Part shown: piece after piece, positions 43,946 to 61,611 of the stretch
How the letters are laid out: the number at the start of each line of letters is the position of its first letter
Position numbering within the stretch: position 1 is the stretch's first letter
DNA from: Spirulina sp.
Lineage (GTDB): Bacteria > Cyanobacteriota > Cyanobacteriia > Phormidesmidales > Phormidesmidaceae
DNA length: 64,000 nt
NCBI GenBank assembly: GCA_044070495.1
Contig: JBIPSI010000012.1
Location: 1 to 64,000 of the forward strand
Direction: 5' to 3'
Position numbers and translations under genes: made by a program
Notes under the pieces: model-generated
The model's database searches: none
Told to the model about the DNA's origin: nothing
What the model saw: the letters and a program-made list of their open reading frames with translations, nothing else

Positions 43946-46495
43946 TCAATTCTGGGTGAGTAATTTTTTAATCCGCTGCTTCAAAATCGACCAATTGACG
44001 GGTTTGGTAATGTAGTCGGTTGCGCCTGCGGCAAAGGCATTTTCGACGGAGGTTTCATCGTCCAGGGCGGTGATCATCAAGATGGGCGTTTGACAACTCT
44101 GCTGAGTGAGTAGTGAACCCTGAATTTGGCCCTGAATTTGCTCGGCATAGCCTAAGTCCTCGGTGGCTTGCAGCAGACGAATGTGCTGACAGCAGGTGAA
44201 GCCGTTCATTTCGGGCATCATGGCATCGAGGAGAACGAGGTCGGGGGACTCTTGTTGGTAACGTTCTAGGGCTTCTTGGCCGTTGGTGGCTTCGATGGTG
44301 CGGTAGCCCGCTTGTTGAACCGCCATGGTCAGCAAGCGACGGAGAGATCGGTCATCGTCTACAACCAGCACGAGGGGCGCATCGATAGAGGTAGGCATGG
44401 TAGGTGCAGGTAAAGGCTCAAGCAAAAACGAAAAGGGGTTTCTGTGGGCCAGTAGGCGGGTGATGACAGAGGCTGGCTCCGGTTTTGAGAAGCCGTAGCC
44501 CTGGCCGTAGGTCATCCCCATCTCGCGGGTGCGGCGGTGCTGAAAGGCCGTTTCGATGCCCATGGCCACGAGGTCAATGTGTAGATCGTGGGACATGATA
44601 ATTAGGCTTTTCAGCCATTCCGCCAGTTTGGGGTCAATATCCAGACGATTGACGGTTTTGGCATCAACTTTGAGGCTGTTGACCGGGAACCGATGCAAAA
44701 AGCTGAGGGAGGCGTAGCGGGTGCCGATGCCATCAATACAGATTTGAATGCCCCGCGCCTGCAATTGCATCCATACTCCCATGGTGGCTGAGGTATCTGT
44801 AACGATGGTGTGGTCTTTGATCTCCAGTACCAGGTCGTCTCCCCGCAGGTGGTGGGTGGCCAAGGCCCGGTCTAGGTGGGTCATCAGATCGAGATGGAGA
44901 AATTGTTGGGTGGAGAGGTTGACACTGAGGCGAACCCGCTGTTCCGGGAACTGCTGCCGCCAGGTGGCCAACTGCTGGCAGGCCTGATCTAGCACCCACC
45001 AGCCCAGGGGAATCATCAGATGGGTGTCTTTGGCCGCGGAGAGAAAGTCTTCGGGGGGCAGCATTCCTCTCTGGGGATGGTGCCACCGCACCAGGGCTTC
45101 TAGGGTGTCGATGCGTCCATTGCCCAGATTTACGATGGGCTGGTAGTAGAGTTCAAATTCATGCTTTTCCAAGGCCTGGTAGAGGTCAGCATTTTTGACC
45201 ACGGCCCGCTGAATTAGGCGGTAGTACTGGCGGCTGATGGCCTCGACGGTAAAGTTTTCGCGGATAAAGCGGTGCCCCGACAGGCCCAATTGCTGGGTGG
45301 CTTCCCCATCTTTCATCAGGTAGCGGATGTAGCTGGCGAGGCCCTGGCTATCGCCATTGCTGAAGGCGGCTCCGCAGTGCGCCTGGGACACCAGCCCCCG
45401 CAGGTAGGAATGGCCTTCGCAAAGGATCGCCACCGGCCTGCCGGAGGACAGGGCCGAGTAGAACTTACTGGGGGCCACCAGCCCTTCCATATCGGTGTCG
45501 ATGCTGACCAGGTGCAGGTCGCAGGCGGTGAGGGACTGGGGCAGCAGGGCTTTGTCTTGATAGGGCAGGAAACGGCAGTTGGTGAGACCGAGGTCTTCGA
45601 CCTGCCGCTGGGTGATCTCCCGTTTGGGGCCACCGCCAATGAAGAGGAACTGCACCGGATCATCCCGCAGGGCTTGGGCCGCACCGAGGATGGTGTCCAT
45701 GTCGTGGCAGCGGCCCATATTGCCGGAGTAGAGCACGGTGAAGACTTGGTCGGTGCTATGGACTTGGGCGAAGTCATTGTCCGCCTTGGCCAAGGGTTTC
45801 ACCCAGTCCGGGTCTGACCAGTTGTGGATCACGGTGATGTGATCCCCTAGGGTGGGATGTTTGGCCCCAATCCGCGCCTTCATGGTTTCGCAGGGCACAA
45901 TGATGGCCTCCGCCCGCTGCCACACCCGACGATTCACCGCATCCCACAGGCGCACCACCCCGTGATGGGGGGGCAGCATTCCCAGCCCCGTCACCACATC
46001 GGGATAGAGGTCGTAGACCAGGGCCGCGTAGGCCGTACCAAAAAGTAGGCTAAACAGAAACCCCACCACCTGCACGTAGGGCGGCTCGCTGACGAACAGG
46101 ACAATATCCCCCCGGTTGCGCTTGTTCAGCAGGTGCCAGGCCGTATGCAGGCAAAAGGCCAAACTGCTGAGGGTGCGGCCCTTCATACTGCGGGAACGGC
46201 TGCGCAAAAAGTTGGAGCGAGTGATATGAACCGGGCCTTTCTGCTCTTCGGCGGGGGCTTCGGCCACCTCAAAGGCATAGCTGGGCTGGCCCGTAAACAC
46301 CCTTACCTCAAACCCCTGCTGGCCTAGGTGGGTGGCCAACTCGTCCATATACTGCCCGGTAGCGGCAAAGTCAGGCGGGAAAAACTGGGTGACAATGGTG
46401 AGCCGAAGCGGGCGATGGTCATGCTCTGGATGGCTTTCCAGCGGTGGTTGCGATGACGCATTCGGTCGGAAGCACTGATTCAGGAATTTAAACAT
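43946..46495 (-). CDS. GT4 glycosyltransferase fused to a degenerate EAL domain and a receiver domain
   Basis: TQFFPPDFAATGQ, YSGNMGRCH, PSKFY (GT4, WcaI-like); YQPIV...EALVRW; REC VVDDD/LLD/ITA/KP. One uninterrupted frame. Confidence 0.9.
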   Translation of the reverse strand: MFKFLNQCFRPNASSQPPLESHPEHDHRPLRLTIVTQFFPPDFAATGQYMDELATHLGQQGFEVRVFTGQPSYAFEVAEAPAEEQKGPVHITRSNFLRSRSRSMKGRTLSSLAFCLHTAWHLLNKRNRGDIVLFVSEPPYVQVVGFLFSLLFGTAYAALVYDLYPDVVTGLGMLPPHHGVVRLWDAVNRRVWQRAEAIIVPCETMKARIGAKHPTLGDHITVIHNWSDPDWVKPLAKADNDFAQVHSTDQVFTVLYSGNMGRCHDMDTILGAAQALRDDPVQFLFIGGGPKREITQRQVEDLGLTNCRFLPYQDKALLPQSLTACDLHLVSIDTDMEGLVAPSKFYSALSSGRPVAILCEGHSYLRGLVSQAHCGAAFSNGDSQGLASYIRYLMKDGEATQQLGLSGHRFIRENFTVEAISRQYYRLIQRAVVKNADLYQALEKHEFELYYQPIVNLGNGRIDTLEALVRWHHPQRGMLPPEDFLSAAKDTHLMIPLGWWVLDQACQQLATWRQQFPEQRVRLSVNLSTQQFLHLDLMTHLDRALATHHLRGDDLVLEIKDHTIVTDTSATMGVWMQLQARGIQICIDGIGTRYASLSFLHRFPVNSLKVDAKTVNRLDIDPKLAEWLKSLIIMSHDLHIDLVAMGIETAFQHRRTREMGMTYGQGYGFSKPEPASVITRLLAHRNPFSFLLEPLPAPTMPTSIDAPLVLVVDDDRSLRRLLTMAVQQAGYRTIEATNGQEALERYQQESPDLVLLDAMMPEMNGFTCCQHIRLLQATEDLGYAEQIQGQIQGSLLTQQSCQTPILMITALDDETSVENAFAAGATDYITKPVNWSILKQRIKKLLTQN

Positions 46496-46551
46496 GGTGT
46501 TGCCAGGGGAAGAAAATAGGGCGGATGGGGCAATAAGCCCATGGGTCAACG

Positions 46552-47361
46552 CTAAAGGGGGGGCGTCTGCGTTTGGGTTTGCATTGATGGCGTCGTTTTC
46601 CGAGACCGCCCCCAGCCCCATCGCCGCCCGATGACCATCGCCCCAATTACCAAAAGACCAGCGGCACTGTGCATTTCAAAGGGAACGGCCTGGGCCTGGG
46701 CATCCCTTAAGTTAATGCTCGGATCTTGACCCAGGTTGGCCGTGGTAAAAATCGCCCTAAAGTTTTCCACGCCAACATCAATGGCGATGATGCCGTCGTT
46801 AAAGTCGTTGTCACTGCCGCGACCAGCGATATCTTCATAGCCCAGCAAAATGATGGGTCTGGTCGCCTTAGGATCCGCGTAAGCCGTCCAGAAAATCGGA
46901 CTGTTGGGATTGTAAGGATCGGTCGGGTTAAGGGTGTAGTCCGTACTTAAGGGCGCTCTACTGGAACTAACGACACCATTGGGGGTGACCGAAAAGTGAA
47001 GCTGAGTTCCCGCCTGAATTTCCGACATCTGCACCCAGTCGCCCACCCGTAGCGGAGCATTGCTACTGGGCAGAATGCTATTGCTACCCGACAGGTTAGA
47101 AAATACCGTGACTTCGCCCGTGGTAGCGCCCGCCGCCGTCATCGAAACCGGAGACTGATAGCCCGCCCCTTCATTAATAAAGGCAATACGGGGAGCGTAG
47201 TTATAGGGCAGATACAGATCGCTACTGTCGATCAGCCAGAGATTGCTGTCTGTCAGGTTAAGCGAAACCCGCTCCTGGGTGCCTAAGTTGGAATATTTCG
47301 TCAGGTCAAACCAGGTAGAACCGGGTACATAGCTTTGGATAGGGCCAACGGATAGAGACAT
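46552..47361 (-). CDS. PEP-CTERM-type (PFE variant) sorted surface protein
   Basis: C-terminal VPFE + TM + RR; GYED...SDNDFND acidic (DUF4114-like) motif. Confidence 0.8.
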   Translation of the reverse strand: MSLSVGPIQSYVPGSTWFDLTKYSNLGTQERVSLNLTDSNLWLIDSSDLYLPYNYAPRIAFINEGAGYQSPVSMTAAGATTGEVTVFSNLSGSNSILPSSNAPLRVGDWVQMSEIQAGTQLHFSVTPNGVVSSSRAPLSTDYTLNPTDPYNPNSPIFWTAYADPKATRPIILLGYEDIAGRGSDNDFNDGIIAIDVGVENFRAIFTTANLGQDPSINLRDAQAQAVPFEMHSAAGLLVIGAMVIGRRWGWGRSRKTTPSMQTQTQTPPL

Positions 47362-50111: not shown

Positions 50112-50957
50112 ATGACAGATCCCCCCTTCACCTTCATCCCAATCCCTGTGCCACAAAGGATTGCTTTTCTAGGTCTGGGCCTAGTGGGTCTGCATATCGC
50201 TTTAATCGTCAGTGTCACGGGCAATGCCGATCAGGTGGTGTTGAGCCTGCTGTTTTGGGGAGCCATCGCCGACCAAGTCCGTCAGGGTGGCCCACTTCGG
50301 TGGGCGCGATCTCCCCTCGCTCGGATATTGGGCCTTGCACTGCTGGGTCTCCTTGGCCTGAAGTCCTTACCGATCCCCGCAACGGAATCGGCCTTTGTGA
50401 GGCTGTTTCCGTTGTTGGCCTTGGTGGGGTGGTCGCTGCTAGTGCGCCAGGGGAAAAACGGCCACGGCTGGAAGGTTTGGGCCTTAGTCGTGGCGCTCTC
50501 GGTGCCCCCCAGGGCGTTGCCGCTCGTTTTAGAAACGGTTTTGGATAGGCCGATCCGGGGGGCGACGGCGGCAGCAGCGGCCTTTGGCCTGCATTTTCTA
50601 GGATTCGATGTGGCGCAGCAGGGGACTTTCATCCAACTCCCTAGCGGCACCGTGGAGGTAGAGTTTGCCTGCACCGGGGCCGCTCTGCTGGGACTACTCC
50701 TACAGGTTTCGGTGCTGCTCGCCGTGGTGACAGCCTGGGCCAAGATCAGAGGGTTGATCCTGGGGTCGGTGGCCATTGCGGCCCTACTCAGCACCGTGCG
50801 CGTCGCCATTATGGCAGCGGTAGTGGGGAATGAAGCCCTCTTCCAGTTCTGGCATGGGTCTAGCGGGGGGCAACTGTTCACCCTCATCGCCCTAGCCATC
50901 CTCAGCTACAGAACCCTTGGGAAAGACGAACGATGGGCGACCCACAACGGTAGGTAG
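50112..50957 (+). CDS. Cyanoexosortase A-like exosortase
   Basis: Cys (VEFACTG), Arg (TVRVAIM) and His (FWHG) triad; multi-TM. Confidence 0.85.
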   Translation: MTDPPFTFIPIPVPQRIAFLGLGLVGLHIALIVSVTGNADQVVLSLLFWGAIADQVRQGGPLRWARSPLARILGLALLGLLGLKSLPIPATESAFVRLFPLLALVGWSLLVRQGKNGHGWKVWALVVALSVPPRALPLVLETVLDRPIRGATAAAAAFGLHFLGFDVAQQGTFIQLPSGTVEVEFACTGAALLGLLLQVSVLLAVVTAWAKIRGLILGSVAIAALLSTVRVAIMAAVVGNEALFQFWHGSSGGQLFTLIALAILSYRTLGKDERWATHNGR

Positions 50958-51092: not shown

Positions 51093-51167
51093 TGTAGAGA
51101 TGTGTCAGGCAATCAGCAAAAAGGCTATCGTCTAGATAGACCTACTCTTGCCCGGTTCAAAACTTTG

Positions 51168-52472
51168 CTATAAGTCTGTCACCAGCCAGAGTCTTCTGGC
51201 CAGACCCTTCAAAAAGGTCTCCCGTTGGGTGACGATATCGGCTCGACCCAACATCCCGGCTTGCAAGTGACAGGTGTGGTTAGCCGCTGGCAGCGCACTT
51301 GTTTGGGGTGCAATTTCGGCCCAATAGAATGGAAGGGTCTTGGCTGAACTAGGATCTGGGCTTTCCGTTTCCGTATCCGGAGCAATGGCCATTACCTGTC
51401 CATGCAGAACACCGTAGTCTGTGTAAGGGCAACTATCGATTCTCACGTTGACCTGCTGTCCAACCTGGACTCGACCCGCATCGGCCTGACTAACTTGGGC
51501 CTGGATAATCAACGCGACATTCGAGGGCGCAATTTGGGCAATGACATCTCCAGCTTGCAAGACCTGGTTTGGATTGCGCAGGTTAAGGGACTGAATGGTG
51601 CCGGTAACGGGAGCCTGCACGACCAACCGGGCTAATTCCAGGTTCACTTGCTGGAGGGTTTGCTGCTGGGATTGAATCTGCTGCTCTAGTTCGGCCTGCT
51701 GGCGGGTTAGTGCCTGCTGCGTCTGGCGCAGGTTAGCCAGGGTAGACTCCCCTCTGGCCTGGGTTTGCCGCATTTCCTCCTCAGCTTGCTCAATAGCGGC
51801 AGCACTAGGATTGATCCGGCCTCGGGTTCGATCCAATCGAGCCAGAGCCGTTTCTAAGGCCGCTTCTTTTTCTTTAAGCTGTAGGTCAGCCAGTGCCCCG
51901 GTATTGGCTAACTGGCGGTAGCGGTTGAGTTCTTCCTGGGCAAACTGCATGGCAGCATTCGCTTCTCGCAGGTCGGCGGCAGTGGTAGCTTGTTGTTCGC
52001 GGTAGTTGCGCTGGCGGAGGTCAAGCTGGGCCTGGGCGGCTGCAATCGCACCTTCAGCCGCCCTTGTCTCTGCCTGAATCTGGCTGTCGAGGACAACCCG
52101 CTCTTGCTGAATGTGCTGCTGCTGCCGCTGAAGCTGGTCGAGTTCGGCCTGGATCTGCTGCTGGCGCGATCGCACCTCGGCATCATCGAGCACCACCAGC
52201 GGATCTCCCTGCTGGACTTCATCGTTGGCTGTCACCAAAATTTGCCGTACCGGCCCGGTTGCAGTTGACTCCACAATCCGCAGGTCGCCTTCGGGACGGA
52301 CAACGGCGGGGGCTTTGACGGTAACGTTGTATTTGAGCAGGGCGGAGAGTGCGATCGCGCTGCCGAAGATGCCGACCAAGGCCAATCCTCCCAGCCTCGA
52401 CCAATGAGAAACACGCGGCAAAAACTCATCTGCATCAACTAAAGAGAGTCGTATTGATTGAGTCGTCTTCAT
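51168..52472 (-). CDS. hlyD: HlyD-family type I secretion membrane fusion protein
   Basis: N-terminal TM, lipoyl-like halves (GPVRQILV / APVTGTIQ), long coiled coil, PYTDYG. Confidence 0.92.
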   Translation of the reverse strand: MKTTQSIRLSLVDADEFLPRVSHWSRLGGLALVGIFGSAIALSALLKYNVTVKAPAVVRPEGDLRIVESTATGPVRQILVTANDEVQQGDPLVVLDDAEVRSRQQQIQAELDQLQRQQQHIQQERVVLDSQIQAETRAAEGAIAAAQAQLDLRQRNYREQQATTAADLREANAAMQFAQEELNRYRQLANTGALADLQLKEKEAALETALARLDRTRGRINPSAAAIEQAEEEMRQTQARGESTLANLRQTQQALTRQQAELEQQIQSQQQTLQQVNLELARLVVQAPVTGTIQSLNLRNPNQVLQAGDVIAQIAPSNVALIIQAQVSQADAGRVQVGQQVNVRIDSCPYTDYGVLHGQVMAIAPDTETESPDPSSAKTLPFYWAEIAPQTSALPAANHTCHLQAGMLGRADIVTQRETFLKGLARRLWLVTDL

Positions 52473-52582
52473 CCGATTCTCTTCATTAAAATCGGTTTTT
52501 AGAAATCTTCGATTCAGCGTAAAAAGTGAAGTCAAGATTCTTGCAGACTGGTGCAGCAGAGCAAAGTATCAAGACAGCTATT

Positions 52583-52918
52583 CTAAGAGGTTTTACATGG
52601 AGTTCCTGTAGCTCTACAACGCCAAAGCCCAGCTCTTTTATAGCAGTCGTCAGAGGTTTTGTTGATTGCACAAGTCCAATTAGCGAAGTCTTTACCAGCG
52701 GCAATACGGACACGACTACGCCATTTTATGCGTGCAAATAGTCTTGCGGTTGACTTTCTGAAAGCACGACCAGTAGCCCCTGTCACTGGCCATAAACAAG
52801 TGTTGGTACACGCGGAGGGTTGTATACTTGATTCACCCTTTAGAAATATCGATTCACTTAAAGGTGCTGTGTTCAGGTCATCTCGCAGGATAGGACTAGA
52901 TTGTGCGGGTATTTTCAT
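52583..52918 (-). CDS. Cys-containing putative precursor with PatB-like N-terminus
   Basis: MKIPAQSSPILR...IQPS then ACTNTC; five Cys in the putative core. Confidence 0.75.
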   Translation of the reverse strand: MKIPAQSSPILRDDLNTAPLSESIFLKGESSIQPSACTNTCLWPVTGATGRAFRKSTARLFARIKWRSRVRIAAGKDFANWTCAINKTSDDCYKRAGLWRCRATGTPCKTS

Positions 52919-52974
52919 GGACGTCTTCCTCACGGCATTAAAATAAATTTGTTCAGCTCAGCGCACAAAGTAAT

Positions 52975-53038
52975 AGAACCCTTATGAGAGGGTGCAGGAT
53001 GATATCAACCCTTATGTTGCACCCTCTCATAAGGTTCT
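52975..53038. terminator. Long inverted repeat (about 21-bp arms): terminator or mRNA stabiliser
   Basis: AGAACC(C)TTATGAGAGGGTGCA ... TGCACCCTCTCATAAGGTTCT. Confidence 0.75.
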
Positions 53039-53087
53039 TTTTCAGTCAAATTTGTAAGTAAATGGCCTTTTTGACAAATGCCATTCA

Positions 53088-53363
53088 TCATTGATTAGCT
53101 CTCTTTGCGCAATCGTCCCGAGAGCCACCTTCTGGCCCAAACCTGCACCACAAAAATCTGGCGATTCTCCCTCCTCCCGGTTTTACTCTTTGTCCTGCCG
53201 CCGCTTCTTCAATCTCTTCGATTGAGAGCTGTTGCCGAGGCAAAAATTCCTCGATCTCTTCAATTGAAAACTCTTCCTGTGGCAACAGCCCGCGCAAAGT
53301 GTTAATTCTTGACGTAAGCACATCTTTACGAAGGCTTGCCTTGGATTGCATCGGAATTCTCAT
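53088..53363 (-). CDS. Putative precursor with PatB-like N-terminus and duplicated acidic segment
   Basis: MRIPMQSKASLR...GLLPQ; SIEEIEE twice; two Cys. Confidence 0.72.
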   Translation of the reverse strand: MRIPMQSKASLRKDVLTSRINTLRGLLPQEEFSIEEIEEFLPRQQLSIEEIEEAAAGQRVKPGGGRIARFLWCRFGPEGGSRDDCAKRANQ

Positions 53364-53431
53364 TTTTCATCCCCATTCAATAACTATTAGAATTCAAAAT
53401 CTTATTCTCAATCGATGCTTGTTTGACTTAT

Positions 53432-55363
53432 TTACCTCACGAACCACGATCGCACTCTCCCAACATTTACTGGACAAACATCACTCACGTCAACTGTAAA
53501 GCGATAGCATTTTCTGGCTTGTTCAAACACTCGTTGGGGATGAAAAAACGTTAGCTTCACATCCCAACAATCGGCTCCGGGGCGGCAGAGGGGACTTTTC
53601 TCCACATCAATCGATTCCAGATCGATTTCTTCATTCATGGCCGACTCAAAAATGCGTTCAATGTTGAAGGCATTGGTGGCGGCATAGTTGATGGCTCGCT
53701 CTTGGGGCGTAATTCCAAAATTGCGTAGTTCGTAGTAGACCCTGTCCAGAAAATTGGTCACTCCCTGCACCGCCGCCTCATCGGGTTCACTGCCACATAC
53801 CGCTTCGACTAGGGCCGAAGTGGTCCAGCTATACATGCAGCGGAGGGTCGGCAAAATGACCGGAACGACCTGTCCCGACATCAGCATGGCCTGTCCAGAG
53901 ATGATGCCAGGAATGGAAACCCGTTCAACGCCTTCTTCGATCTGTTCCCGCAGGAACTGACGCAACCGCCCAAAGCCCTGTTCCGCATAGGCTCCCTGGG
54001 GCATCACGACATAGATGGGGGTGGCATTCAGGCTCAGGGTCCAGAGGATGTCGGCGGCATCCCAGGGATCGGTATTGAGGTGTTGCAGCAGTTGTTGCGG
54101 GTCATTGGGATTAGCCCCTTCTCCCATGTGTTGCTGAATGGAGTCGCGGCGTGCTTCGGTGGCAAAGTCGTAGCCCAGCGTGCCCAATGCATAGACGAGT
54201 TGGGCAGGAGCACCGCCTCCCCCTTCACAACTACAGGCCGCAGGCTGTACGGCACTGGGGCTAATTTGAGTGGGGGACTGAGGAGACCGGGGCAGATCGG
54301 GCTCTAAGACTGCAACCTCGGCGGGAGCAGGACTGTAGCTGGCGGCCTGGATGGCGGCACGCGGTTGGGGCATGGGAGACGGTGATGCTTGTGCCGTATC
54401 TGGGGCTAGTTGGTTGGTTTGTAGATCTGTGGTTTCACTCATGGAGGTTCCTGGTGAACGAAGAATAGATAGGGCTCCTTGGATGTTGAGACGCCCTGCC
54501 AGCAGGCGATCGCACTCCTCAATGGGTTGGTCATCGCAGGTGATCGCACTCTGTAAAATGGCAGCTTTAATTGCTTTGGGGTCAGGGCGCTGGCCTTGTT
54601 TGACTTGCAGGCTCAAGAGCAGGGCGGCCACCCCAGACACAATGGCTGTGGCATAGCTAGTTCCGGTTTGGGGAGCGGTTTCGCCTCCCGGTACTGCGCC
54701 AACAATGTCCTGGCCAAGGGCTAAAATGCCTTGAGTTCGGTACTTTTCACCCCAGTTGCTAAAATCTAAGGGTTTGCCCTCGCTGTTCATGGCACCCACC
54801 GCCAAAACCGATGGCATCGCACCCGGAATGTGGAGACAATCGCAGCCGTCGTTGCCCACTGCGGACACAATTAAGATGTTTTGGTCGGTGCAATGGCGCA
54901 CGGCATTGGTGAGTAACAGATCGGCTTCGCCACTAGGGGTGAGTTGTCCCCCGCTGATGTTGATGACTTGTGCTCCCTGATTAGCCGCCGTGAGTATGGC
55001 TCTGGCTAAATCCACTTGAGAACAAGGGGTTAGAGAACCATCCTGACCATCGGTGAAGATAGGAATCGACAAGCCTCGACAATGGGGAGCGATTCCCTGT
55101 ATGTCTCCGTGATGCTGCCCTAGGATGATGCTGGCAACGTGAGTGCCGTGATACATAGCAGCCCCAGGGCTGGAACGATTGATTCCGAGGGCATTGGACA
55201 GGGTAATGTCGGCTTTTGCCAGATGGGGATGGGCGCGATCGCACTCCCCATCCAGAATCGCGATCAGAACATCCTCACAGCCCAGGGTAATATCCCAGAG
55301 ATCCTGTAAGCCGGGAATTCTAGAGGCAATAGTTGTGTTGGCAACGGGGGTGGTTGAAGACAC
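53432..55363 (-). CDS. PatA/PatG-family S8 (cyanobactin-type) protease with C-terminal PatG domains
   Basis: IAILDG, HGTHVAS and GTSYAT catalytic triad; INISGG; LVYALGTLGYDF..EARRD; ERAINYAATN; FTVDVSD. Confidence 0.92.
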   Translation of the reverse strand: MSSTTPVANTTIASRIPGLQDLWDITLGCEDVLIAILDGECDRAHPHLAKADITLSNALGINRSSPGAAMYHGTHVASIILGQHHGDIQGIAPHCRGLSIPIFTDGQDGSLTPCSQVDLARAILTAANQGAQVINISGGQLTPSGEADLLLTNAVRHCTDQNILIVSAVGNDGCDCLHIPGAMPSVLAVGAMNSEGKPLDFSNWGEKYRTQGILALGQDIVGAVPGGETAPQTGTSYATAIVSGVAALLLSLQVKQGQRPDPKAIKAAILQSAITCDDQPIEECDRLLAGRLNIQGALSILRSPGTSMSETTDLQTNQLAPDTAQASPSPMPQPRAAIQAASYSPAPAEVAVLEPDLPRSPQSPTQISPSAVQPAACSCEGGGGAPAQLVYALGTLGYDFATEARRDSIQQHMGEGANPNDPQQLLQHLNTDPWDAADILWTLSLNATPIYVVMPQGAYAEQGFGRLRQFLREQIEEGVERVSIPGIISGQAMLMSGQVVPVILPTLRCMYSWTTSALVEAVCGSEPDEAAVQGVTNFLDRVYYELRNFGITPQERAINYAATNAFNIERIFESAMNEEIDLESIDVEKSPLCRPGADCWDVKLTFFHPQRVFEQARKCYRFTVDVSDVCPVNVGRVRSWFVR

Positions 55364-55407
55364 GGGTTGACTCTAAGAGAGGGGGCGATCGCAGCAGCCT
55401 TAGCTTT

Positions 55408-55614
55408 CTAAAAAAGCAAAATAAACGACCACGTAGCAAAAGACTGTGATCCCTTTAAGGCCAAGGAATTTTTCTCGTGAGCCCACGGGATACTGCTATC
55501 TCCACCACCGCTGATATGAGTTGATTCTTGATCAGTCAAATCGCGAATATAACTGCTGGAATGTTTTTGGAGAGCAGTGACATTATTAGATTTAGGCGTT
55601 TGTCGGGGTTGCAT
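55408..55614 (-). CDS. Double-Gly leader peptide P9
   Basis: IRDLTDQESTHISGG / GDSSIPWAHEK...; GGAGG RBS. Confidence 0.8.
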   Translation of the reverse strand: MQPRQTPKSNNVTALQKHSSSYIRDLTDQESTHISGGGDSSIPWAHEKNSLALKGSQSFATWSFILLF

Positions 55615-55645
55615 TATCTATTTCCTCCAGATATTGATTGGAATC

Positions 55646-55924
55646 TCACCAAAGCAACGTGCCTCGAATTACGCCACCTTTGTTGGCTTGTCTTAAGGGA
55701 CTCAATTCGGCTTGAAATTCTTCTCGAAGTCGAACATGTGGTGTTGTTGAATACTCCCTCCCACTATCTACTTGAGTAACAACCTTAGTAAAAGCGTCAA
55801 ACATACCGCCTCGGATGTCACCTTGAGTAGTTTCGGGCATTTCTTCCCAGAGATGGCTATTTTGGCTTTGCGGATGCTTGAAGTTTTGAGGTTTAATTAC
55901 CGAGTTTTTGCAGAAAAATTTCAT
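55646..55924 (-). CDS. Double-Gly leader peptide P8 (core starts like phycocyanin beta)
   Basis: LWEEMPETTQGDIRGG / MFDAFTKVVTQVDSGREY... Confidence 0.85.
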   Translation of the reverse strand: MKFFCKNSVIKPQNFKHPQSQNSHLWEEMPETTQGDIRGGMFDAFTKVVTQVDSGREYSTTPHVRLREEFQAELSPLRQANKGGVIRGTLLW

Positions 55925-56020
55925 CACTAACCATCCTTGACAAACTAGCAAATTCTCAGCCGAACAACTGAACTGCCGAGGAGTCCCTGAAGTCGTTTTT
56001 AAGGTTATGCGATCGCACGG

Positions 56021-56284
56021 CTACTGGATGAGATGGGTTAGCTCATGGGCAAGGAGATTGCGACCAACAGAAACTGTGCCACCTCTTCCAGGACCATCGG
56101 AGGGGAACCTGAAGCCCAGATCACTAACTTCAGGTAAGGTGGAAAACAGTAGGATAGTGCCTCGGATTTCCCCACCTGCGTAGGCTTGCATTTGGTCTTC
56201 TGTCAAGTCTGTGGTTCCAATGGCAGACAGCGGATCTAACGAATTTGGATGTTGTGAAATTGAGTTTCTGGTTTTCTTGAACAT
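56021..56284 (-). CDS. Double-Gly leader peptide P7 (PsaA FX-loop-like and DUF4157-like motifs)
   Basis: DLTEDQMQAYAGG / EIRGT...LGFRFPSDGPGRGGT...GRNLLAHELTHLIQ; AAGGAG RBS. Confidence 0.87.
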   Translation of the reverse strand: MFKKTRNSISQHPNSLDPLSAIGTTDLTEDQMQAYAGGEIRGTILLFSTLPEVSDLGFRFPSDGPGRGGTVSVGRNLLAHELTHLIQ

Positions 56285-56339
56285 GAATGACTCCTTATGT
56301 AATCACTTTTCGGCAAGATAATCCCGGAAAGTGTAGGTA

Positions 56340-56540
56340 TTAGCCTCCTCCGATGCCAAGACCAAGGCCAACAGCACCTTTGTTCTTGGTGGAAGACCGA
56401 TCTAATTCTGCTGTTATAAAAATCAAAGAAAGTGCAATTGTTGCACCTCCTTCAAGAGTTCTTGATTGCTCGTCATTTAATTCTTGAAAGAGAGCAGGAT
56501 TAATCTGGGTACGCTTGGACTTTTGATTGGAAGAATCCAT
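56340..56540 (-). CDS. Double-Gly leader peptide P6
   Basis: LFQELNDEQSRTLEGG / ATIALSL...; AGGAG RBS. Confidence 0.85.
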   Translation of the reverse strand: MDSSNQKSKRTQINPALFQELNDEQSRTLEGGATIALSLIFITAELDRSSTKNKGAVGLGLGIGGG

Positions 56541-56575
56541 TTTCCAATTCTCCTGAGGTTTAGTGATTTTCTGTT

Positions 56576-56854
56576 TTACTGCGGTCTTGGCATTGCAGAA
56601 ACAAAGGGCAGTCGGGTGAAGAAGGTTGGGGCTTCAGCGACAACCGCATCGCCACCAAGATCAAAGATAAGGCAATCAACAATAGAGCCACTAGGTTCGT
56701 CAAAGATAGCAGAGTTCTCTGAAGGTTGATTCAGCGCGAAGATCACAGCTTTGCTAACGCCGCCTGCTAAGGTTCCTGACTGTTCATCGGTCAGAGGTTG
56801 TAGCAAGTTGAGATTGATCTGGTTGAGATTGGGTTGTTGATTAGGAGAAATCAT
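56576..56854 (-). CDS. Double-Gly leader peptide P5 (Walker-B-like and DnaK-like motifs)
   Basis: LLQPLTDEQSGTLAGG / VSKAV...IFDEPSGS...LIFDLGG. Confidence 0.85.
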   Translation of the reverse strand: MISPNQQPNLNQINLNLLQPLTDEQSGTLAGGVSKAVIFALNQPSENSAIFDEPSGSIVDCLIFDLGGDAVVAEAPTFFTRLPFVSAMPRPQ

Positions 56855-56861
56855 TGAAGAA

Positions 56862-57047
56862 TTACCCTCCTATTCCTAATCTGCCAGACAAACTCGATGT
56901 GGCTTGTGCAGGAATATAGGCGAAGGGATTGGCAAAGAGCAGCGGCCCGCCACCCGATATGGACTGCGACTGACTACTATCAAGTGATTCCCATAATTGA
57001 CTGTTTTTGAATTGCGGCTTAGGTGGTTTAGGTGGGTAATATTTCAT
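56862..57047 (-). CDS. Double-Gly leader peptide P4
   Basis: LWESLDSSQSQSISGG / GPLLFANPF...; GGAGG RBS. Confidence 0.85.
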   Translation of the reverse strand: MKYYPPKPPKPQFKNSQLWESLDSSQSQSISGGGPLLFANPFAYIPAQATSSLSGRLGIGG

Positions 57048-57118
57048 GGTTTTACCTCCATTAAACAAGCGTATTTATTTAGATTGGAACATGTCGGAAA
57101 TCGAGATATGGGAATATT

Positions 57119-57274
57119 TTACTCATACCCACCAACGTTTATATGGGGTTTGGTTGTTTCCCATCTAGTCTTTCCTCCAGCCGAAATAGTCTGTGACTGA
57201 TCTGTGTTTAGAGGTTGCCACAGTTGATCGTTTTGAAGTTGTAGCTTAGCTGATTTCGGTGAATGATGTTTCAT
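57119..57274 (-). CDS. Double-Gly-type leader peptide P3 (51 aa, not in the ORF track; EF-Tu-like core)
   Basis: My translation: MKHHSPKSAKLQLQNDQLWQPLNTDQSQTISAG / GKTRWETTKPHINVGGYE*. Confidence 0.85.
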   Translation of the reverse strand: MKHHSPKSAKLQLQNDQLWQPLNTDQSQTISAGGKTRWETTKPHINVGGYE

Positions 57275-57366
57275 GGTTTTGGCTCTATAGAACTATGTGA
57301 GTAGGCAGTGGTTAGTAAATGCTGCGAAGCCAACCATGATATTGGCTTCTTTTCGTTTTATGTAGT

Positions 57367-57564
57367 CTATGCCTGACGTCCTGGCCCATCACAGGGGAAT
57401 GATGAAAAGCCAAAATCTTTTTTGGGCGGTTCAGCACGAGCAAAAGGATTGGCAAATAGCAACACTCCACCTGAGATAGACTGTGACTGCTCTGGGGTGA
57501 GGGGCTGCCAAGGCGCAGCCTTTGAAGACTGAGCGTTAGTCGATTTGCGATGGTGATATTTCAT
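57367..57564 (-). CDS. Double-Gly leader peptide P2 (PsaB FX-loop-like motif)
   Basis: PWQPLTPEQSQSISGG / VLLFANPF...KKDFGFSSFPCDGPGRQA. Confidence 0.87.
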   Translation of the reverse strand: MKYHHRKSTNAQSSKAAPWQPLTPEQSQSISGGVLLFANPFARAEPPKKDFGFSSFPCDGPGRQA

Positions 57565-57597
57565 GATTTTGCCTCAATACAACAAAGACTTAGAGAG

Positions 57598-57679
57598 TAG
57601 ACCTCCTGCATAAATGCTTTTTAGGGGTCATGAGTCGTTGCGCGGCTCCGCCGCGCAACGATATCATGCAGGAAGTCTA
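57598..57679. mobile_element. MITE-like element with TA-flanked inverted ends and an internal hairpin
   Basis: TAGACCTCCTGCAT ... ATGCAGGAAGTCTA; internal TCGTTGCGCGG/CCGCGCAACGA stem. Confidence 0.7.
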
Positions 57680-57967
57680 GTGAGTATCAACCTCTAACTT
57701 GACTAGTTAGAGAGTGTTCAGAACCATGTCCTAGAGCCTCTGAACTCTCGTTTTAGAATTGGAGTCTCGACGAAATTCTTGCTCGGGAGTGTTCATGGTT
57801 TTGTGGGATAGCCGTCTCGGCTGTCCCCTTAGGAACAGGCCAGAGGCCCATCCCACAAGACCTTTAGGAGTTGGGCCTAATTTGTCTGTCAAAATTTACA
57901 CAAAAAACCGATCACTCTCCTTGTTCCCCATTCAGCTAGGTTCTCCCTGTTTCCGAACTACAACCAA

Positions 57968-58147
57968 TTACAATCCAGGGGGCAGCATGTCATAGCTATT
58001 CCAAATGGTGCATCCTTTTTCGGTGCAGACTGTTCTGAGATCAATCTTACGCCCACCATAAATTTTGGTACTTTGTTGATCGCTCAGTGGCGTTAACAGC
58101 ACATTATTGTTGATAGCTTGTGACCGATTAGGGGATATTAAGTTCAT
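57968..58147 (-). CDS. Double-Gly leader peptide P1 (59 aa, not in the ORF track)
   Basis: My translation: MNLISPNRSQAINNNVLLTPLSDQQSTKIYGG / RKIDLRTVCTEKGCTIWNSYDMLPPGL*; AAGGAGG RBS at about 58153-58159. Confidence 0.85.
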   Translation of the reverse strand: MNLISPNRSQAINNNVLLTPLSDQQSTKIYGGRKIDLRTVCTEKGCTIWNSYDMLPPGL

Positions 58148-58471
58148 TTTGACCTCCTTAAACGACTTAATCTATAGCTCAACCCTAAGCAATATCATTG
58201 AGTTTGTCTTGCACAGTTCTGCGATCGCTGCACATTCTTGCCGCGAGTTAACAAAACTTTATCTGAGCTTTGCGGAGAACTGCAGGCAATGGACGCAGGT
58301 ACTTCTAGGAGCAGACTCAAAGCCTGAAGCAATCTTGAGGCTCTGATAATTAGCTTGACCTTTGGCTACCCAAGACTCTATAAGAGCACTAGCTAGGTCG
58401 ATACAGACCGCTTGTAGTAGCGTAGGAACATATAAATCGAATCAGTCGAAAAGGAGAGCGGGAGTTGAGCC

Positions 58472-59371
58472 ATGTCTTTGCAGCAATCGCAGTCCTCTGT
58501 TACTGCGATATCAAATCGACTGACAGATGTCCTTGAACCCAACCCAACCCTACATAGCCATCACACAGGTTGGCGAAGTATTACGCTAGAGACTTTTGAT
58601 CTGGCGGCTGGAGAGACCTCTGAATATTGCTTGAAACATCACGTCGTGAGTATTCATACTGGGCCAGAAGCAGGGGTTCGCTTGAGGCGAATAACTGAAA
58701 ATCAGTGCGAGGAAGCAACATTATCATTAGGATCGGCGGCAATTTGTCCGACTCACCGTCCCCACTTTTTTGAGTTGAATGGTAATTCTAAAGCCCTCTG
58801 CCTGAATCTCAAGCCCGATCTGCTGCACTCCCATGCTACGGAACTGTTTGGTCGCGATCGCGTAGAGTTACTTCCCAAAATGGGCATTCAAGATGGCTTG
58901 ATTTACCAACTTGGCCTAGCCCTGCAGACAGATCTATGTAGGCAAGCTAATTCCGATCGCCTCTATGCTGAGGCCTTAGCAACGACGCTAGCACTCCATC
59001 TCTTAAGGCATTACTCCACCTTTGGCGATCGTTATCCTACCTGCAAAGGAAAACTGTCGCCGAAAAAGCTGAAGCTTGTCACTGACTATATCAACGACAA
59101 TTTAGCCAGGGAACTAAGTTTAAAAGAACTGGCTGTGATCACTCAATTGAGCCAGCATCATTTCTGCCGTACATTTAAGCGTTCTACTGGTCTAAGTCCC
59201 CATCAATATGTGATTCGACAACGGGTAGAACGCGCCAAACGATTGCTTAAGCAGGGTTCAATGCCCCTGGCAGACATTGCCATAAGCTGTGGCTTCAACC
59301 ATCAGAGTCATCTCCATCGCCATTTCAAGCGACTGACCGGGGTCACACCTCTAAACTGGCTAGATTCATGA
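58472..59371 (+). CDS. AraC-family transcriptional regulator
   Basis: C-terminal double HTH (HFCRTFKRSTGLSPHQY...CGFNHQSHL..HFKRLTGVTP); divergent from the peptide array. Confidence 0.93.
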   Translation: MSLQQSQSSVTAISNRLTDVLEPNPTLHSHHTGWRSITLETFDLAAGETSEYCLKHHVVSIHTGPEAGVRLRRITENQCEEATLSLGSAAICPTHRPHFFELNGNSKALCLNLKPDLLHSHATELFGRDRVELLPKMGIQDGLIYQLGLALQTDLCRQANSDRLYAEALATTLALHLLRHYSTFGDRYPTCKGKLSPKKLKLVTDYINDNLARELSLKELAVITQLSQHHFCRTFKRSTGLSPHQYVIRQRVERAKRLLKQGSMPLADIAISCGFNHQSHLHRHFKRLTGVTPLNWLDS

Positions 59372-61515
59372 GGACTTACCCCTGCGTCCAACAACATAGT
59401 GAAGAAGACTGTGGTGCAGCCTGTCTCGCAACGATTGCCAAGCACTACGGGCGCACCCTCTCGATTAGCCGCATTCGTGAAGCCGTAGGCACTGGGCAAC
59501 TCGGCACCACCCTGCTAGGGCTCCGACGCGGGGCCGAAACCCTGGGCTTCGATGCCCGTCCGGTCAAAGCCTCTCCAGAACTGATTGACCAACTGGAATC
59601 AGCCCCACTGCCTGCCATCATCCACTGGAAGGGCTACCACTGGGTGGTGCTATACGGTCAACGGGGGAAACACTATGTCATCGCCGATCCAGGGGTGGGG
59701 GTGCGCTACCTGTCTCGCCGGGAGTTGACCGAAGCCTGGGGTAACGGCGTCATGCTGCTGCTGGTGCCCGATGAGTCACGTTTCTCCGCCCAACCCAACG
59801 ATCAGGTGAAAGGCTTCAGTCGCTTTTTGGGGCGGGTGTGGGCCTATCGTGGAATTCTGTCAGAGGCGCTGCTCCTCAATCTCGTCATCGGCCTGCTGGC
59901 CCTGGCCCTGCCCCTGGTGATTCAGATTCTCACCGATGACGTGTTGGTACGGCGCGATGCCGATTTGCTCACCACAGTGGCCTTAGGAGCCCTGGCGCTG
60001 ATCGGCTTCAGTAGCCTGCTGCAACTGATTCAGGGCAACTTGATCGCCCATTTTGCCCAGCGGCTAGAGCTGGGGTTAGTGCTCGACTTTGGGCGGCAAC
60101 TGCTGCGTCTACCGATGCACTATTACGAATCGCACCGCAGCGGCGAGATCGTCAGTCGTCTGCGCGATATTCGTGAGGTGAATTTCCTGGTGTCGCAGGT
60201 GGTGATTAGCCTACCCAGCGAGTTTTTTATTGCCCTGGTGTCGCTGGGGTTAATGGTGATCTATAGCTGGCAGCTCACCCTGGCGGCGCTGGCGATCGCC
60301 GTGCTGATGACTCTGCCCAGCCTGCTGTTTTTCCCGACGTTGCAGCGTAAAACCCGCGATGTGCTGGTCACCGAAGCCGAAAACCAGGGGATTTTGGTGG
60401 AAAACTTTAAGGGGGCTATGACCCTGAAAACCAGCCATGGTGCTCCCCAAGCCTGGGATGAGTTGCAGGGTCGCTTTGGCCGGTTAGCCAACGTCACCTT
60501 TCGCACCGTGCAGATTGCCATTTGGAACAGCTTCACCTCTAGCTTGGTGTCAGGGATGGGGGCGATCGCCATTCTCTGGTTTGGCGGCTGGTTGGTGATT
60601 CAGCAGCAACTCACCATTGGTCAACTGCTGGCGTTTAACGCTCTTTATCGCTACGTCACCGGTTTTGTGGGCACCGTCATTCGCTTTATCGATGAATTCG
60701 CCCGCGCCAAAACCGCCATGCAGCGCCTAGGCGATATCATCGATGCCCCGCCCGAAACCCCAGCCGATGCGGCTAAACCCTGGGTTGAGATTGCCGACGA
60801 TGGCGATATTACCTGTATTGATGTCACCTTCCACCATGCGGGCAGAGTAGACTTGCTGAAAGACTTTTCCCTGACGATTCCTGGCGGCAAAGTCACCGCT
60901 ATTATCGGCAAGTCAGGCTGTGGCAAAAGTACTCTGGCCAAGCTCATCGCCGGGCTCTACACACCTCATTCTGGCAACATCCGCTTTGATAAATATAACC
61001 AGAGTGACTTGGCTCTCGACTGCCTTCGCCAGCAAATTATTCTTGTCCCCCAAGAGCCTCACTTTTGGAGCCGTTCCATCTTTGAAAACTTTCGCCTCAG
61101 TTACCCCTATGCGAATTTTGAAGACATTATCACGGCCTGCGAAGTCACCGGAGCGGACGAATTCATTGGTCAATTGCCAGATAAGTACCAAACGGTGCTC
61201 GGTGAGTTTGGCGTTAATCTGTCGGGAGGACAGAAACAACGGCTGGCGATTGCCCGCGCTCTAATCACCAATCCTCCGATTCTGATTCTGGATGAATCAA
61301 CGGGCGCTCTCGACCCAGCCAGCGAAGCAGAGGTTCTAGAACAGGTGATTGCTCACCGTTACGGTAAAACCACCCTGATGATTAGCCACCGTCCTCAGGT
61401 AGTTCAAAGAGCAGATTGGATTATTTCTCTGGCATCTGGCCAACTTTTGTCGATGGGTACCTTAGCTGATCTTTGTAAACAGCCTGGAATCCATACTGAA
61501 TTTATCAGCCGCTAG
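59368..61515 (+). CDS. Peptidase-containing ABC transporter (C39 + TMD + ATPase)
   Basis: QHSEEDCGAACL (catalytic Cys), HWVV...IADP, GKSGCGKS, LSGGQKQR; ATGA overlap with araC. Confidence 0.95.
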   Translation: MRTYPCVQQHSEEDCGAACLATIAKHYGRTLSISRIREAVGTGQLGTTLLGLRRGAETLGFDARPVKASPELIDQLESAPLPAIIHWKGYHWVVLYGQRGKHYVIADPGVGVRYLSRRELTEAWGNGVMLLLVPDESRFSAQPNDQVKGFSRFLGRVWAYRGILSEALLLNLVIGLLALALPLVIQILTDDVLVRRDADLLTTVALGALALIGFSSLLQLIQGNLIAHFAQRLELGLVLDFGRQLLRLPMHYYESHRSGEIVSRLRDIREVNFLVSQVVISLPSEFFIALVSLGLMVIYSWQLTLAALAIAVLMTLPSLLFFPTLQRKTRDVLVTEAENQGILVENFKGAMTLKTSHGAPQAWDELQGRFGRLANVTFRTVQIAIWNSFTSSLVSGMGAIAILWFGGWLVIQQQLTIGQLLAFNALYRYVTGFVGTVIRFIDEFARAKTAMQRLGDIIDAPPETPADAAKPWVEIADDGDITCIDVTFHHAGRVDLLKDFSLTIPGGKVTAIIGKSGCGKSTLAKLIAGLYTPHSGNIRFDKYNQSDLALDCLRQQIILVPQEPHFWSRSIFENFRLSYPYANFEDIITACEVTGADEFIGQLPDKYQTVLGEFGVNLSGGQKQRLAIARALITNPPILILDESTGALDPASEAEVLEQVIAHRYGKTTLMISHRPQVVQRADWIISLASGQLLSMGTLADLCKQPGIHTEFISR

Positions 61516-61611
61516 TCACGCTGTTCTGGTTTACTCTCCTAGTCGTTACAAGCTCCAATGCTCACCTAGCTGGTGGAACCATCAGTGATGGTGTGCAACG
61601 GTTTGTCGGTG

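Follow-up and report, generated by a model that had tools for sequence, protein, structure and literature searches.

Several short double-glycine (GG) precursors, encoded together with a C39-ABC exporter, a HlyD protein and an S8 protease, are a known arrangement in cyanobacteria, where such loci have been described as "bacteriocin" clusters (Wang, Fewer and Sivonen 2011, PMC3140520); an S8 peptidase is what defines group VI among them. The sole cyanobacterial system of this kind for which we found an experimental function is EbfG1-4/PteB of Synechococcus elongatus, whose small GG-motif proteins are secreted via a C39-peptidase transporter (Parnasa et al. 2016, PMC4997328). As far as the accessible part of that paper goes, their function is to enable biofilm formation and no mimicry is described, and our comparison with them is one of descriptions only. 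Here we analyze a cluster with the gene set of the "bacteriocin" loci in a window of 64,000 nucleotides (the whole stretch of DNA that was analyzed: positions 1 to 64,000 of contig JBIPSI010000012.1, Spirulina sp., assembly GCA_044070495.1), and we focus on P3, a small open reading frame (ORF) whose predicted mature product resembles the N-terminus of EF-Tu.

Arrays of double-glycine peptides are common in cyanobacteria, yet a role is known for hardly any of them, and the cores are considered hypervariable and unrelated. Unlike the clusters in the accessible part of PMC3140520, the one studied here has cores that appear to be copies of conserved protein segments. The six module motifs described below were unmatched in the five supplementary files of that report, the table there probably being without sequences, and we found no published description of GG-peptide cores copying housekeeping proteins in a search that most subscription journals lay outside. 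Judging from sequence, we lean toward the view that P3 is a real, selected gene whose exported 18-mer copies the EF-Tu N-terminus, as one of several mimics of the producer's own protein segments that act outside the producer.

P3 and the N-terminus of EF-Tu

The array consists of nine small ORFs on the minus strand with a leader of the double-glycine type (P1 to P9, window positions 55408-58147; Table 1), and P3 is the third of them. Its leader aligns with those of its neighbors P2 (E 0.003) and P4 (E 1.6e-6), as well as with nine other leaders, and scores 59.7 bits (E 3e-15) against a leader profile. Leaders processed by peptidase-containing ABC transporters (PCATs) end in a Gly-Gly-type pair (GG, GA or AG) and have hydrophobic residues near positions -4, -12 and -15. 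The P3 leader, laid out as L(-16)W(-15)..L(-12)......I(-4)SAG/G (the slash marks the predicted cut), is of this double-glycine kind. Its ISAG aligns with ISGG, LAGG or LEGG in the sister leaders, and three relatives have GG/G or GG/A at the same place, so that the predicted cut site lies after ISAG. Upstream of the P3 ATG we read GAG-C-CAAAACC-ATG, a context similar to those of P2 and P4.

The EF-Tu of the same genome (C10:34903; Pfam GTP_EFTU) begins MAREKFERTKPHVNIGTIG. A cut after ISAG places residue 1 of the P3 core on residue 2 of EF-Tu, which becomes residue 1 of the mature protein if the initiator Met is removed, as is the established rule before Ala. Over the first 15 positions, the two share 7 identities and 5 conservative pairs (7/18 identities over the whole core), and at the DNA level 24 of 45 bases are identical to tuf when counted by eye. 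By itself this similarity is marginal: EF-Tu was the top nonself match of P3 in a six-frame tblastn search of the 5.3-Mb genome, but with an E value of 0.11 (BLOSUM62) or 0.21 (PAM30), and the same 24.3 bits were reached somewhere in the genome by one of 25 shuffled P3 cores. The only match among 177,635 distinct PDB sequences was again an EF-Tu chain (5i4r_C, E 1.1, query residues 35-48 on 3-16). Register makes the match a different matter. The ungapped in-register score of the P3 core against EF-Tu is 46, which none of 200,000 shuffles reached (best shuffle, 43), and of the 117,442 candidate start codons in the genome, each scored in register against the core, that of EF-Tu came first, with 33 for the runner-up. 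Once register is counted, the match is not due to chance.

The relatives of P3 repeat this architecture. Locus L017, whose S8 protease is 90% identical to that of the window, has a related array that includes a peptide we call P3' (...SLSGG/GKERFARSKPHTNIGSFTYPP...); the P3' core (GKERFARSKPHTNIGSF...) is the same peptide in L017 and in genome G114. A profile search with P3 and P3' against 1.84 billion representatives returned 11 proteins at E<=0.001, of which eight were read and three proved to be small GG peptides. One library protein, P0012 (...QISGG/GRDNFVRSKPHVNIGILN), has an EF-Tu-like core straight after the GG, and a search of 401 genomes of the class with P0012 found another in G413 (...LLSGG/AKEQFIRHKPHVNAGSFL). 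The EF-Tu-like cores thus number four, one of them from a library protein and the others from at least three genomes with three family labels. In all four, the EF-Tu-like segment begins immediately after the Gly-Gly-type pair, and three of the four cores are exactly 18 residues long, including two of the three found besides P3.

The four cores share the pattern x-[KR]-x-x-[FW]-x-x-x-K-P-H-x-N-x-G. Their invariant columns, K-P-H-x-N-x-G, are also invariant in the EF-Tu N-termini compared, and positions 2, 5 and 7 read K, W and T in P3 and K/F/R, R/F/R and K/F/R in the three relatives. Aligned as a group to EF-Tu N-termini with hhalign, the cores gave a probability of 95.6 and an E value of 1.1e-8, with core residues 1-18 on EF-Tu 2-19. 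A DNA pattern for GG followed by the motif occurs in 3 of the 401 class genomes and its reversed control in none. At 11 of 15 positions EF-Tu is matched by at least one of P3 and P3', which fits independent divergence from an EF-Tu-like ancestor. On these sequences, the family of EF-Tu-like GG peptides is real but rare. The initial annotation had placed the P3 core in register with the mature EF-Tu N-terminus and had made the idea depend on conservation of the motif in homologs; the first claim stands after the shuffling and ranking tests and is echoed in the relatives, and the motif is kept in three further double-glycine peptides. G413 itself has two genes for EF-Tu, at 81% and 79% identity to that of the window's genome, with N-termini MARAKF... 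and MSRTKF...; its EF-Tu-like peptide exactly matches neither.

A chance ORF with a chance resemblance, rather than a gene, would be in keeping with the lack of annotation, the whole-genome E value of 0.11, the one shuffle in 25 that scored as high, and the lack of an orthologue in 40 relatives. We nevertheless regard this as extremely improbable: the leader is clearly paralogous to those of P2 and P4 and scores as strongly as stated against the leader profile, the in-register tests exclude chance, and three relatives have the same architecture. P3 had been labeled unannotated, which fits what we found in a collection of 5.8 billion proteins, where a word-based search for the exact P3 sequence gave no candidate, while neighboring P8 is present and its search returned only P8. 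An NCBIfam scan assigned no family to either P3 or P8.

P3 looks like a shortened version of a longer form, cut to 18 residues as in two independent relatives. The tblastn alignment with P3' runs through the P3 stop codon (GGYE(stop)NIPISRFPTCSN against GSF--TYP-PRFPTCPN), and the in-frame remnant past the stop is listed in Table 1.

Sister peptides and the sources of their cores

A source could be assigned to five of the nine cores, whose segments are copied from phycocyanin beta, PsaA, PsaB, ATP synthase c, a porin, a DUF4157 protein or EF-Tu; Pfam and NCBIfam searches confirmed what each of the source genes encodes. For these five, the broader notion of an array that imitates conserved stretches of protein is supported. 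In a genome search, the real cores gave 10 matches at E<0.01 outside the array, compared with 0 in each of 25 shuffles. The P8 core begins MFDAFTKVVTQVDSGREY where C-phycocyanin beta reads MFDAYTKVVSQADARGDF from Met1. Its top eight PDB matches are phycocyanin beta chains, aligned over residues 1-24 or 1-34 in register, and the phycocyanin start ranks first among the 117,442 candidate starts, at 55 versus 34. The next P8 segment, RLREEFQAELSPLR, resembles a coiled coil present in two OprB-family porins, of which one also has an SLH domain, and the peptide ends in GGVIRGTLLW, which resembles a leader-core junction.

Among the other peptides, P7 scores above the Pfam cutoff for PsaA_PsaB (24.2 bits versus 23.3), with a tblastn E value of 1e-6 and an eCIS_core match at E 0.003; P2 matches PsaB by tblastn (E 1.9e-5) and Pfam PsaA_PsaB (E 0.0015). 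A regex scan assigned both IRGTLLL and the C-terminal LLFANPFS(stop) to ATP synthase subunit c. The ..GRLGIGG end of P4 weakly resembles the C-terminus of an M50 protease (E 0.28), and its relative P0013 retains both P4 ends. We found no source for the P5, P6 and P9 cores in the genome or in the PDB. Candidates set aside were glycyl-tRNA synthetase alpha for the P1 core (PDB E only 1.7) and three Pfam matches far under cutoff: TcaA_3rd_4th for P3 (E 0.034), Transketolase_N for P5 (E 0.061) and DUF4693 for P8 (E 0.15). For the P1 candidate, a regex offered only circular support, as it had been built from that very pair. An extension of the P7 alignment into the P7 leader was treated as unreliable. 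As to photosystem I (PSI), the genome has two sequence-divergent psaA-psaB pairs (C22:20053-24711 and C30:815-5624), both of which were best matches for the P2 and P7 cores. P2 retains the first cluster-binding Cys and stops before the position of the second, while its L017 counterpart retains both.

Table 1. Features of the peptide cluster in the window, and module-bearing ORFs in other genomes
Feature	Position	Strand	Description
P3 precursor ORF	57119-57274	minus	51 residues plus stop, translation MKHHSPKSAKLQLQNDQLWQPLNTDQSQTISAGGKTRWETTKPHINVGGYE; outside called genes
P3 leader, double-glycine type	57176-57274	minus	33 residues, last residues ISAG
P3 predicted mature core	57122-57175	minus	18 residues, GKTRWETTKPHINVGGYE; EF-Tu N-terminus copy
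Residues flagged in the initial annotation	57131-57175	minus	15 residues, translation GKTRWETTKPHINVG
Remnant in frame past P3 stop codon	57083-57118	minus	Aligns with longer tail of relative P3'
P1	57968-58147	minus	Double-glycine peptide; core source not identified, weak GlyQ resemblance; relative in G079
P2	57367-57564	minus	VLLFANPFA (ATP synthase c C-terminus), then PPKKDFGFSSFPCDGPGR (PsaB Fx loop)
P4	56862-57047	minus	Core begins GPLLFANPFA (ATP synthase c C-terminus), ends ..GRLGIGG
P5	56576-56854	minus	Double-glycine peptide; no source found
P6	56340-56540	minus	Double-glycine peptide; no source found; relatives in G145, G114
P7	56021-56284	minus	EIRGTILL (ATP synthase c loop), PsaA Fx loop, then GRNLLAHELTHLIQ (DUF4157 HExxH motif)
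P8	55646-55924	minus	C-phycocyanin beta 1-20 from Met1, porin coiled-coil segment, ATP synthase c loop
P9	55408-55614	minus	Double-glycine peptide; no source found
ABC exporter with N-terminal C39 peptidase domain (PCAT)	59368-61515	plus	Peptidase_C39 + ABC_membrane + ABC_tran; presumed leader-cleaving exporter
AraC-family regulator	58472-59371	plus	Pfam
PatA/PatG-family subtilisin-type (S8) protease	53432-55363	minus	Immediately downstream of array; Pfam S8 + PatG_D + PatG_C
HlyD-type type I secretion adaptor	51168-52535	minus	Pfam HlyD_3
G413 array			C39-ABC, AraC, six GG peptides, HlyD; no S8; cores end ...EAEGKIRGTLLLL(stop) and ...RALLFANSFS(stop); another with QRLQEEFGADLATLR
G222 peptides			GGS/SLLAHELTHVAQQSGI(stop) and ...QRLQEEFSAELATLRGRVDA(stop)
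G222 and G145 peptides			Whole core is the ATP synthase c C-terminal decapeptide, GG/LVLLFANPFA(stop)
G145 peptide			P7-like
G054 ORF (L009/L019)	L009 12030-12575		181 residues, without GG leader, between AraC and S8 genes

The leader profile finds such peptides in 7 of the 401 class genomes. Their arrays carry five family labels (f1, f16, f27, f28 and f32), and the modules are seen in three of these (f1, f16 and f28), recurring in G413, G222, G145 and G054 and in the library proteins P0007 and P0013. Native protein termini coincide with free peptide ends in all four EF-Tu-like cores, in both phycocyanin-like cores and in four ORFs that end in the ATP synthase c C-terminus. The 181-residue ORF of G054 contains SVIRGTLILNF and LPRLQEEFSAELATVRG, with VLLFANPFG(stop) as its C-terminal end; it strings together the ATP synthase c loop, the porin coiled coil and, at the very end, the ATP synthase c C-terminus. 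No C39 exporter was among the ORFs listed over 11 kb of this locus, and the product of the ORF may be a polyprotein that the S8 protease cuts. Nine cyanobacterial loci that encode a relative of the S8 protease (L015 to L023) were examined: a GG array is present in L017 alone, and the 181-residue module ORF in L019; a GG-leader regex returned nothing credible in the remaining loci, and tblastn of the small ORFs of L015 to L023 was dominated by out-of-frame echoes of flanking genes. In G145 (L035 8732-10126), a 464-residue Peptidase_S74 (endosialidase chaperone) ORF stands between the GG peptides and HlyD, the position held by the PatA/PatG-type protease in the window.

These modules bear on a plant-directed role for P3, which the initial annotation had raised by likening the core to the elf18 pattern sensed by the receptor EFR. 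In favor of an elf18-like agonist or antagonist, the P3 core is in register with, and spans exactly, the N-terminal 18 residues by which elf18 is defined. EFR ligands, however, need an N-terminal acetyl group and particular residues for activity, and a ribosomal peptide freed by GG cleavage would be without the acetyl group. The PSI, ATP synthase c, phycocyanin and porin modules likewise match no plant receptor ligand known to us, and we know of no receptor that senses PSI, ATP synthase c or phycocyanin segments. Precedents of a kind do exist: bacteria can encode nonimmunogenic epitope copies that block perception of their own epitopes, as with cold-shock protein and the receptor CORE (PMC11161748), and RaxX is a PCAT-processed mimic peptide that acts on a plant receptor (PMC6637879). 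Yet EFR is found only in Brassicaceae, and the divergent natural elf18 variants tested were not consistent antagonists, according to PMC11161748. An action on EFR is therefore possible but unlikely, and as an explanation of P3 we give it only a very slight chance.

To ask what selection has acted on, we compared the array with its L017 counterpart. The ratios of nonsynonymous to synonymous divergence (dN/dS) were 0.33 for P1, 0.27 for P2, 0.36 for P7, 0.22 for P8 and 0.56 for P9, compared with 0.15 for the protease, which points to purifying selection on the sister modules. Over the 34 codons of the phycocyanin-like and porin-like modules of P8 there were four synonymous and no nonsynonymous changes, which argues for selection at the protein level and not for a resemblance maintained at the RNA level. 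By blastn, the Fx-loop segment of P7 matches psaA at 83% over 47 nt and the P8 core start matches cpcB at 88% over 34 nt, from exactly the ATG. We take the cores, on these alignments, to descend from gene fragments captured long ago, their synonymous sites now being largely randomized.

Cassettes have evidently come and gone. In L017, P3' lies on a 321-nt insert between P7' and P8', a position other than that of P3, and a metagenome contig of run X4 (record 13) has a 324-nt insert at window position 55998, exactly the P3' cassette point; this points to a presence/absence polymorphism between P7 and P8. None of the four DNA runs examined covered the P3 part of the window. As read from these sequences, such arrays evolve by gain, loss and movement of cassettes. 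The cluster as a whole, from ABC exporter to HlyD, aligns with L017 at 83-89% DNA identity (window 51120-61582, L017 2131-13260), with flanks unaligned. Its S8 protease is 90% identical to that of L017 and only 69% to that of G054, a genome of the same genus, while EF-Tu identities run in the reverse order (86% to G114, which belongs to another family and has the peptides of L017, and 90% to G054). This reversal, together with the unaligned flanks, suggests horizontal transfer of the whole cluster. A repeat of about 35 bp lies just past the stop codon of the ABC gene (window 61549-61583) and occurs twice in L017 (13339-13373 and 17278-17313), one copy following closely on the part of L017 that aligns with the window's HlyD gene; a border repeat and a dispersed element are both conceivable.

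The same observations lend something to the view that the array merely captures and shuffles fragments of highly transcribed genes, the resemblance being a trace of origin and any selection acting elsewhere, for example on a generic secreted or matrix peptide such as EbfG. The cores are mosaics, the cassettes are gained, lost and moved (as the 321-nt and 324-nt inserts illustrate), the likeness to psaA and cpcB extends to nucleotides, and P8 ends in what looks like a leader-core junction, GGVIRGTLLW. Against it, the mimic segments of P8 show no nonsynonymous and four synonymous changes, the residues kept in four diverged EF-Tu-like cores are those invariant in EF-Tu, native termini coincide with free peptide ends in the EF-Tu-like and phycocyanin-like cores and the ATP synthase c ORFs, and the same few modules recur in three of the five family labels that carry arrays. 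We consider this account rather improbable.

Export and protease genes of the cluster

The array is flanked upstream by the divergent AraC-family and exporter genes and downstream by the S8 protease and HlyD genes. The exporter's Peptidase_C39 match has an E value of 3.9e-36 and covers model positions 2-132 of 133; against NCBIfam bacteriocin and HlyB-type models it reaches E values down to 1e-133, all below the curated cutoffs. Read by eye, EEDCGAAC and GYHWVVLYG stand at what we take to be the positions of the catalytic Cys and His. The S8 protease scores 736 bits against NCBIfam TIGR03895 (cutoff, 421), and the HlyD adaptor matches type_I_hlyD at E 1.2e-53 with 182.6 bits, below the cutoff of 208.65. 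Pfam places C39-ABC, HlyD and AraC genes beside the arrays of both the window's genome (G000) and G413, and an AraC gene also adjoins the array or module ORF in L017 (by DNA alignment) and in G054 (by likeness judged by eye). The conservation of this regulator suggests that expression is inducible. Twelve larger ORFs, covering part of 43.9-64.0 kb, were scanned; among them, we found no domain of a YcaO/PatD-type heterocyclase or of Pat genes other than the PatA/PatG-type protease, and recognized no immunity gene. Nearby lie a gene for a fused glycosyltransferase-EAL-receiver protein of 891 residues (43946-46621) and an exosortase EpsH-family gene (50112-50957), which hint at surface or exopolysaccharide functions in the neighborhood.

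This gene set invites another explanation, namely, that the exported peptides are interfering bacteriocins that enter rival cyanobacteria or algae and block the assembly or function of conserved machines: the c-ring, the Fx site between PsaA and PsaB, the phycocyanin alpha/beta contact, the porin trimer and EF-Tu folding. Several source segments probably lie at subunit contacts, and the PsaA-like loop of P7 has both cluster-binding Cys residues replaced (by S and V), as might be expected of a poisoning copy. The EF-Tu N-terminus, though, is not a contact site that we know of, and there is no evident route of uptake to cytoplasmic and thylakoid targets. The P3 core, read from its sequence, has neither the net charge nor the amphipathic pattern typical of membrane-active peptides, and the 12 scanned ORFs yielded no recognizable immunity gene. 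Even though the genes match those of class II bacteriocin-like systems, as described in PMC3140520, we think this explanation unlikely.

Proposed self-segment mimicry and known systems

The explanation we prefer, in which the peptides are mimics of self segments, would run as follows. The C39 domain of the adjacent exporter would cleave the P3 leader after ISAG, and the ABC exporter and HlyD would secrete the released 18-residue core, a peptide that would descend from, and still copy, the free N-terminus of mature EF-Tu. P3 would be one module of a repertoire whose other cores are near-copies of conserved segments of very abundant proteins: phycocyanin beta Met1-20, the ATP synthase c C-terminus and loop, the PsaA and PsaB Fx loops and the porin coiled coil. 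Core placement would turn native N- or C-termini into free peptide ends, and because native ends become free ends in this way, likeness to the native segment is probably the selected trait. Outside the producer, the peptides might act as mimics of fragments, either as competing ligands (decoys or antagonists) or as signals, and the receiver would be any molecule that normally binds or senses those native segments. The sequences, their register and conservation, purifying selection and the gene neighborhood are observed here; from them we infer where the leader is cut, that the core is exported and acts outside the cell, and that mimicry is the trait under selection.

Several points weigh against this explanation. 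P3 is described here from DNA sequence, its expression and export are predictions, and we know of no receiver for the peptides. We found no P3 orthologue among 40 relatives (best foreign E, 0.046); of seven loci with weak P3 matches in these relatives, six trace to a single out-of-frame stretch in a conserved gene, the seventh is unrelated, and none is a GG peptide. P3' is only 43% identical to P3, lies elsewhere in its own array and has saturated synonymous divergence. P3 looks like a truncated longer gene and could be decaying, although the 18-residue length of two independent relatives argues against decay. Four of the nine cores (P1, P5, P6 and P9) have no identified source, and the DUF4157 module and the weak M50 match misfit the notion of very abundant proteins, a status that for the other sources rests on general knowledge and not on data from this organism. 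Finally, nucleotide likeness to psaA and cpcB indicates descent from gene fragments, which by itself requires no function.

A broader extension of self-segment mimicry, which we offer as a tentative possibility, is that some cyanobacteria export "self-pattern" peptides aimed at receptors for fragments shed by damaged cells, on which they would work as decoys, antagonists or alarm-type signals. The copied patterns would be termini and loops of EF-Tu, phycocyanin beta, the PSI core, ATP synthase c and the major porin; the receptors might reside in hosts, grazers or the cyanobacteria themselves, and the P3 family would constitute an encoded, stand-alone, elf18-like ligand. The cores of these arrays appear to draw on a small, recurring vocabulary taken from the proteins that are best conserved and most abundant in the cell, and they provide concrete peptides that can be synthesized: an 18-mer copy of EF-Tu, a 10-mer ATP synthase c tail and a 20-mer phycocyanin start. 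If mimicry is true, it would introduce a new principle among the peptides that bacteria secrete, it would bear on microbial damage signaling, competition and escape from pattern recognition, and the role of cyanobacterial GG peptides would become directly testable.

Fragments of housekeeping proteins serve as cues in other organisms, among them the enterococcal sex pheromones with their plasmid-encoded inhibitor peptides, the extracellular death factor of Escherichia coli (from Zwf) and inceptin (from plastid ATP synthase gamma). In these systems, as proposed here, short pieces of abundant proteins are extracellular cues, and enterococci have small genes for look-alikes that compete with them; the organisms, peptides and export routes are different, so that these are analogies only, and we know of no such fragment sensing in cyanobacteria. 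The cyanobactin pathway is similar in that a PatA/PatG-family protease adjoins the precursors, whereas the leaders here are of the double-glycine type. RaxX/RaxB of Xanthomonas oryzae likewise combines a short precursor and clustered secretion genes with a product that shares sequence and function with another molecule, the plant PSY hormone, but RaxX copies a hormone of the host and not proteins of the producer, and it is a single, tyrosine-sulfated peptide of a plant pathogen (PMC6637879). In intrabacterial epitope antagonism, a second, divergent copy of an epitope competes with the immunogenic one at the receptor; there, the copy lies inside a full-length paralogue, CspB, and the receptor, CORE, is known (Stevens et al. 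2024, PMC11161748), whereas here the copy is a stand-alone peptide that is predicted to be exported. The cluster is of a known type, and it is the principle behind its cargo, copies of conserved protein segments, that is unexpected.

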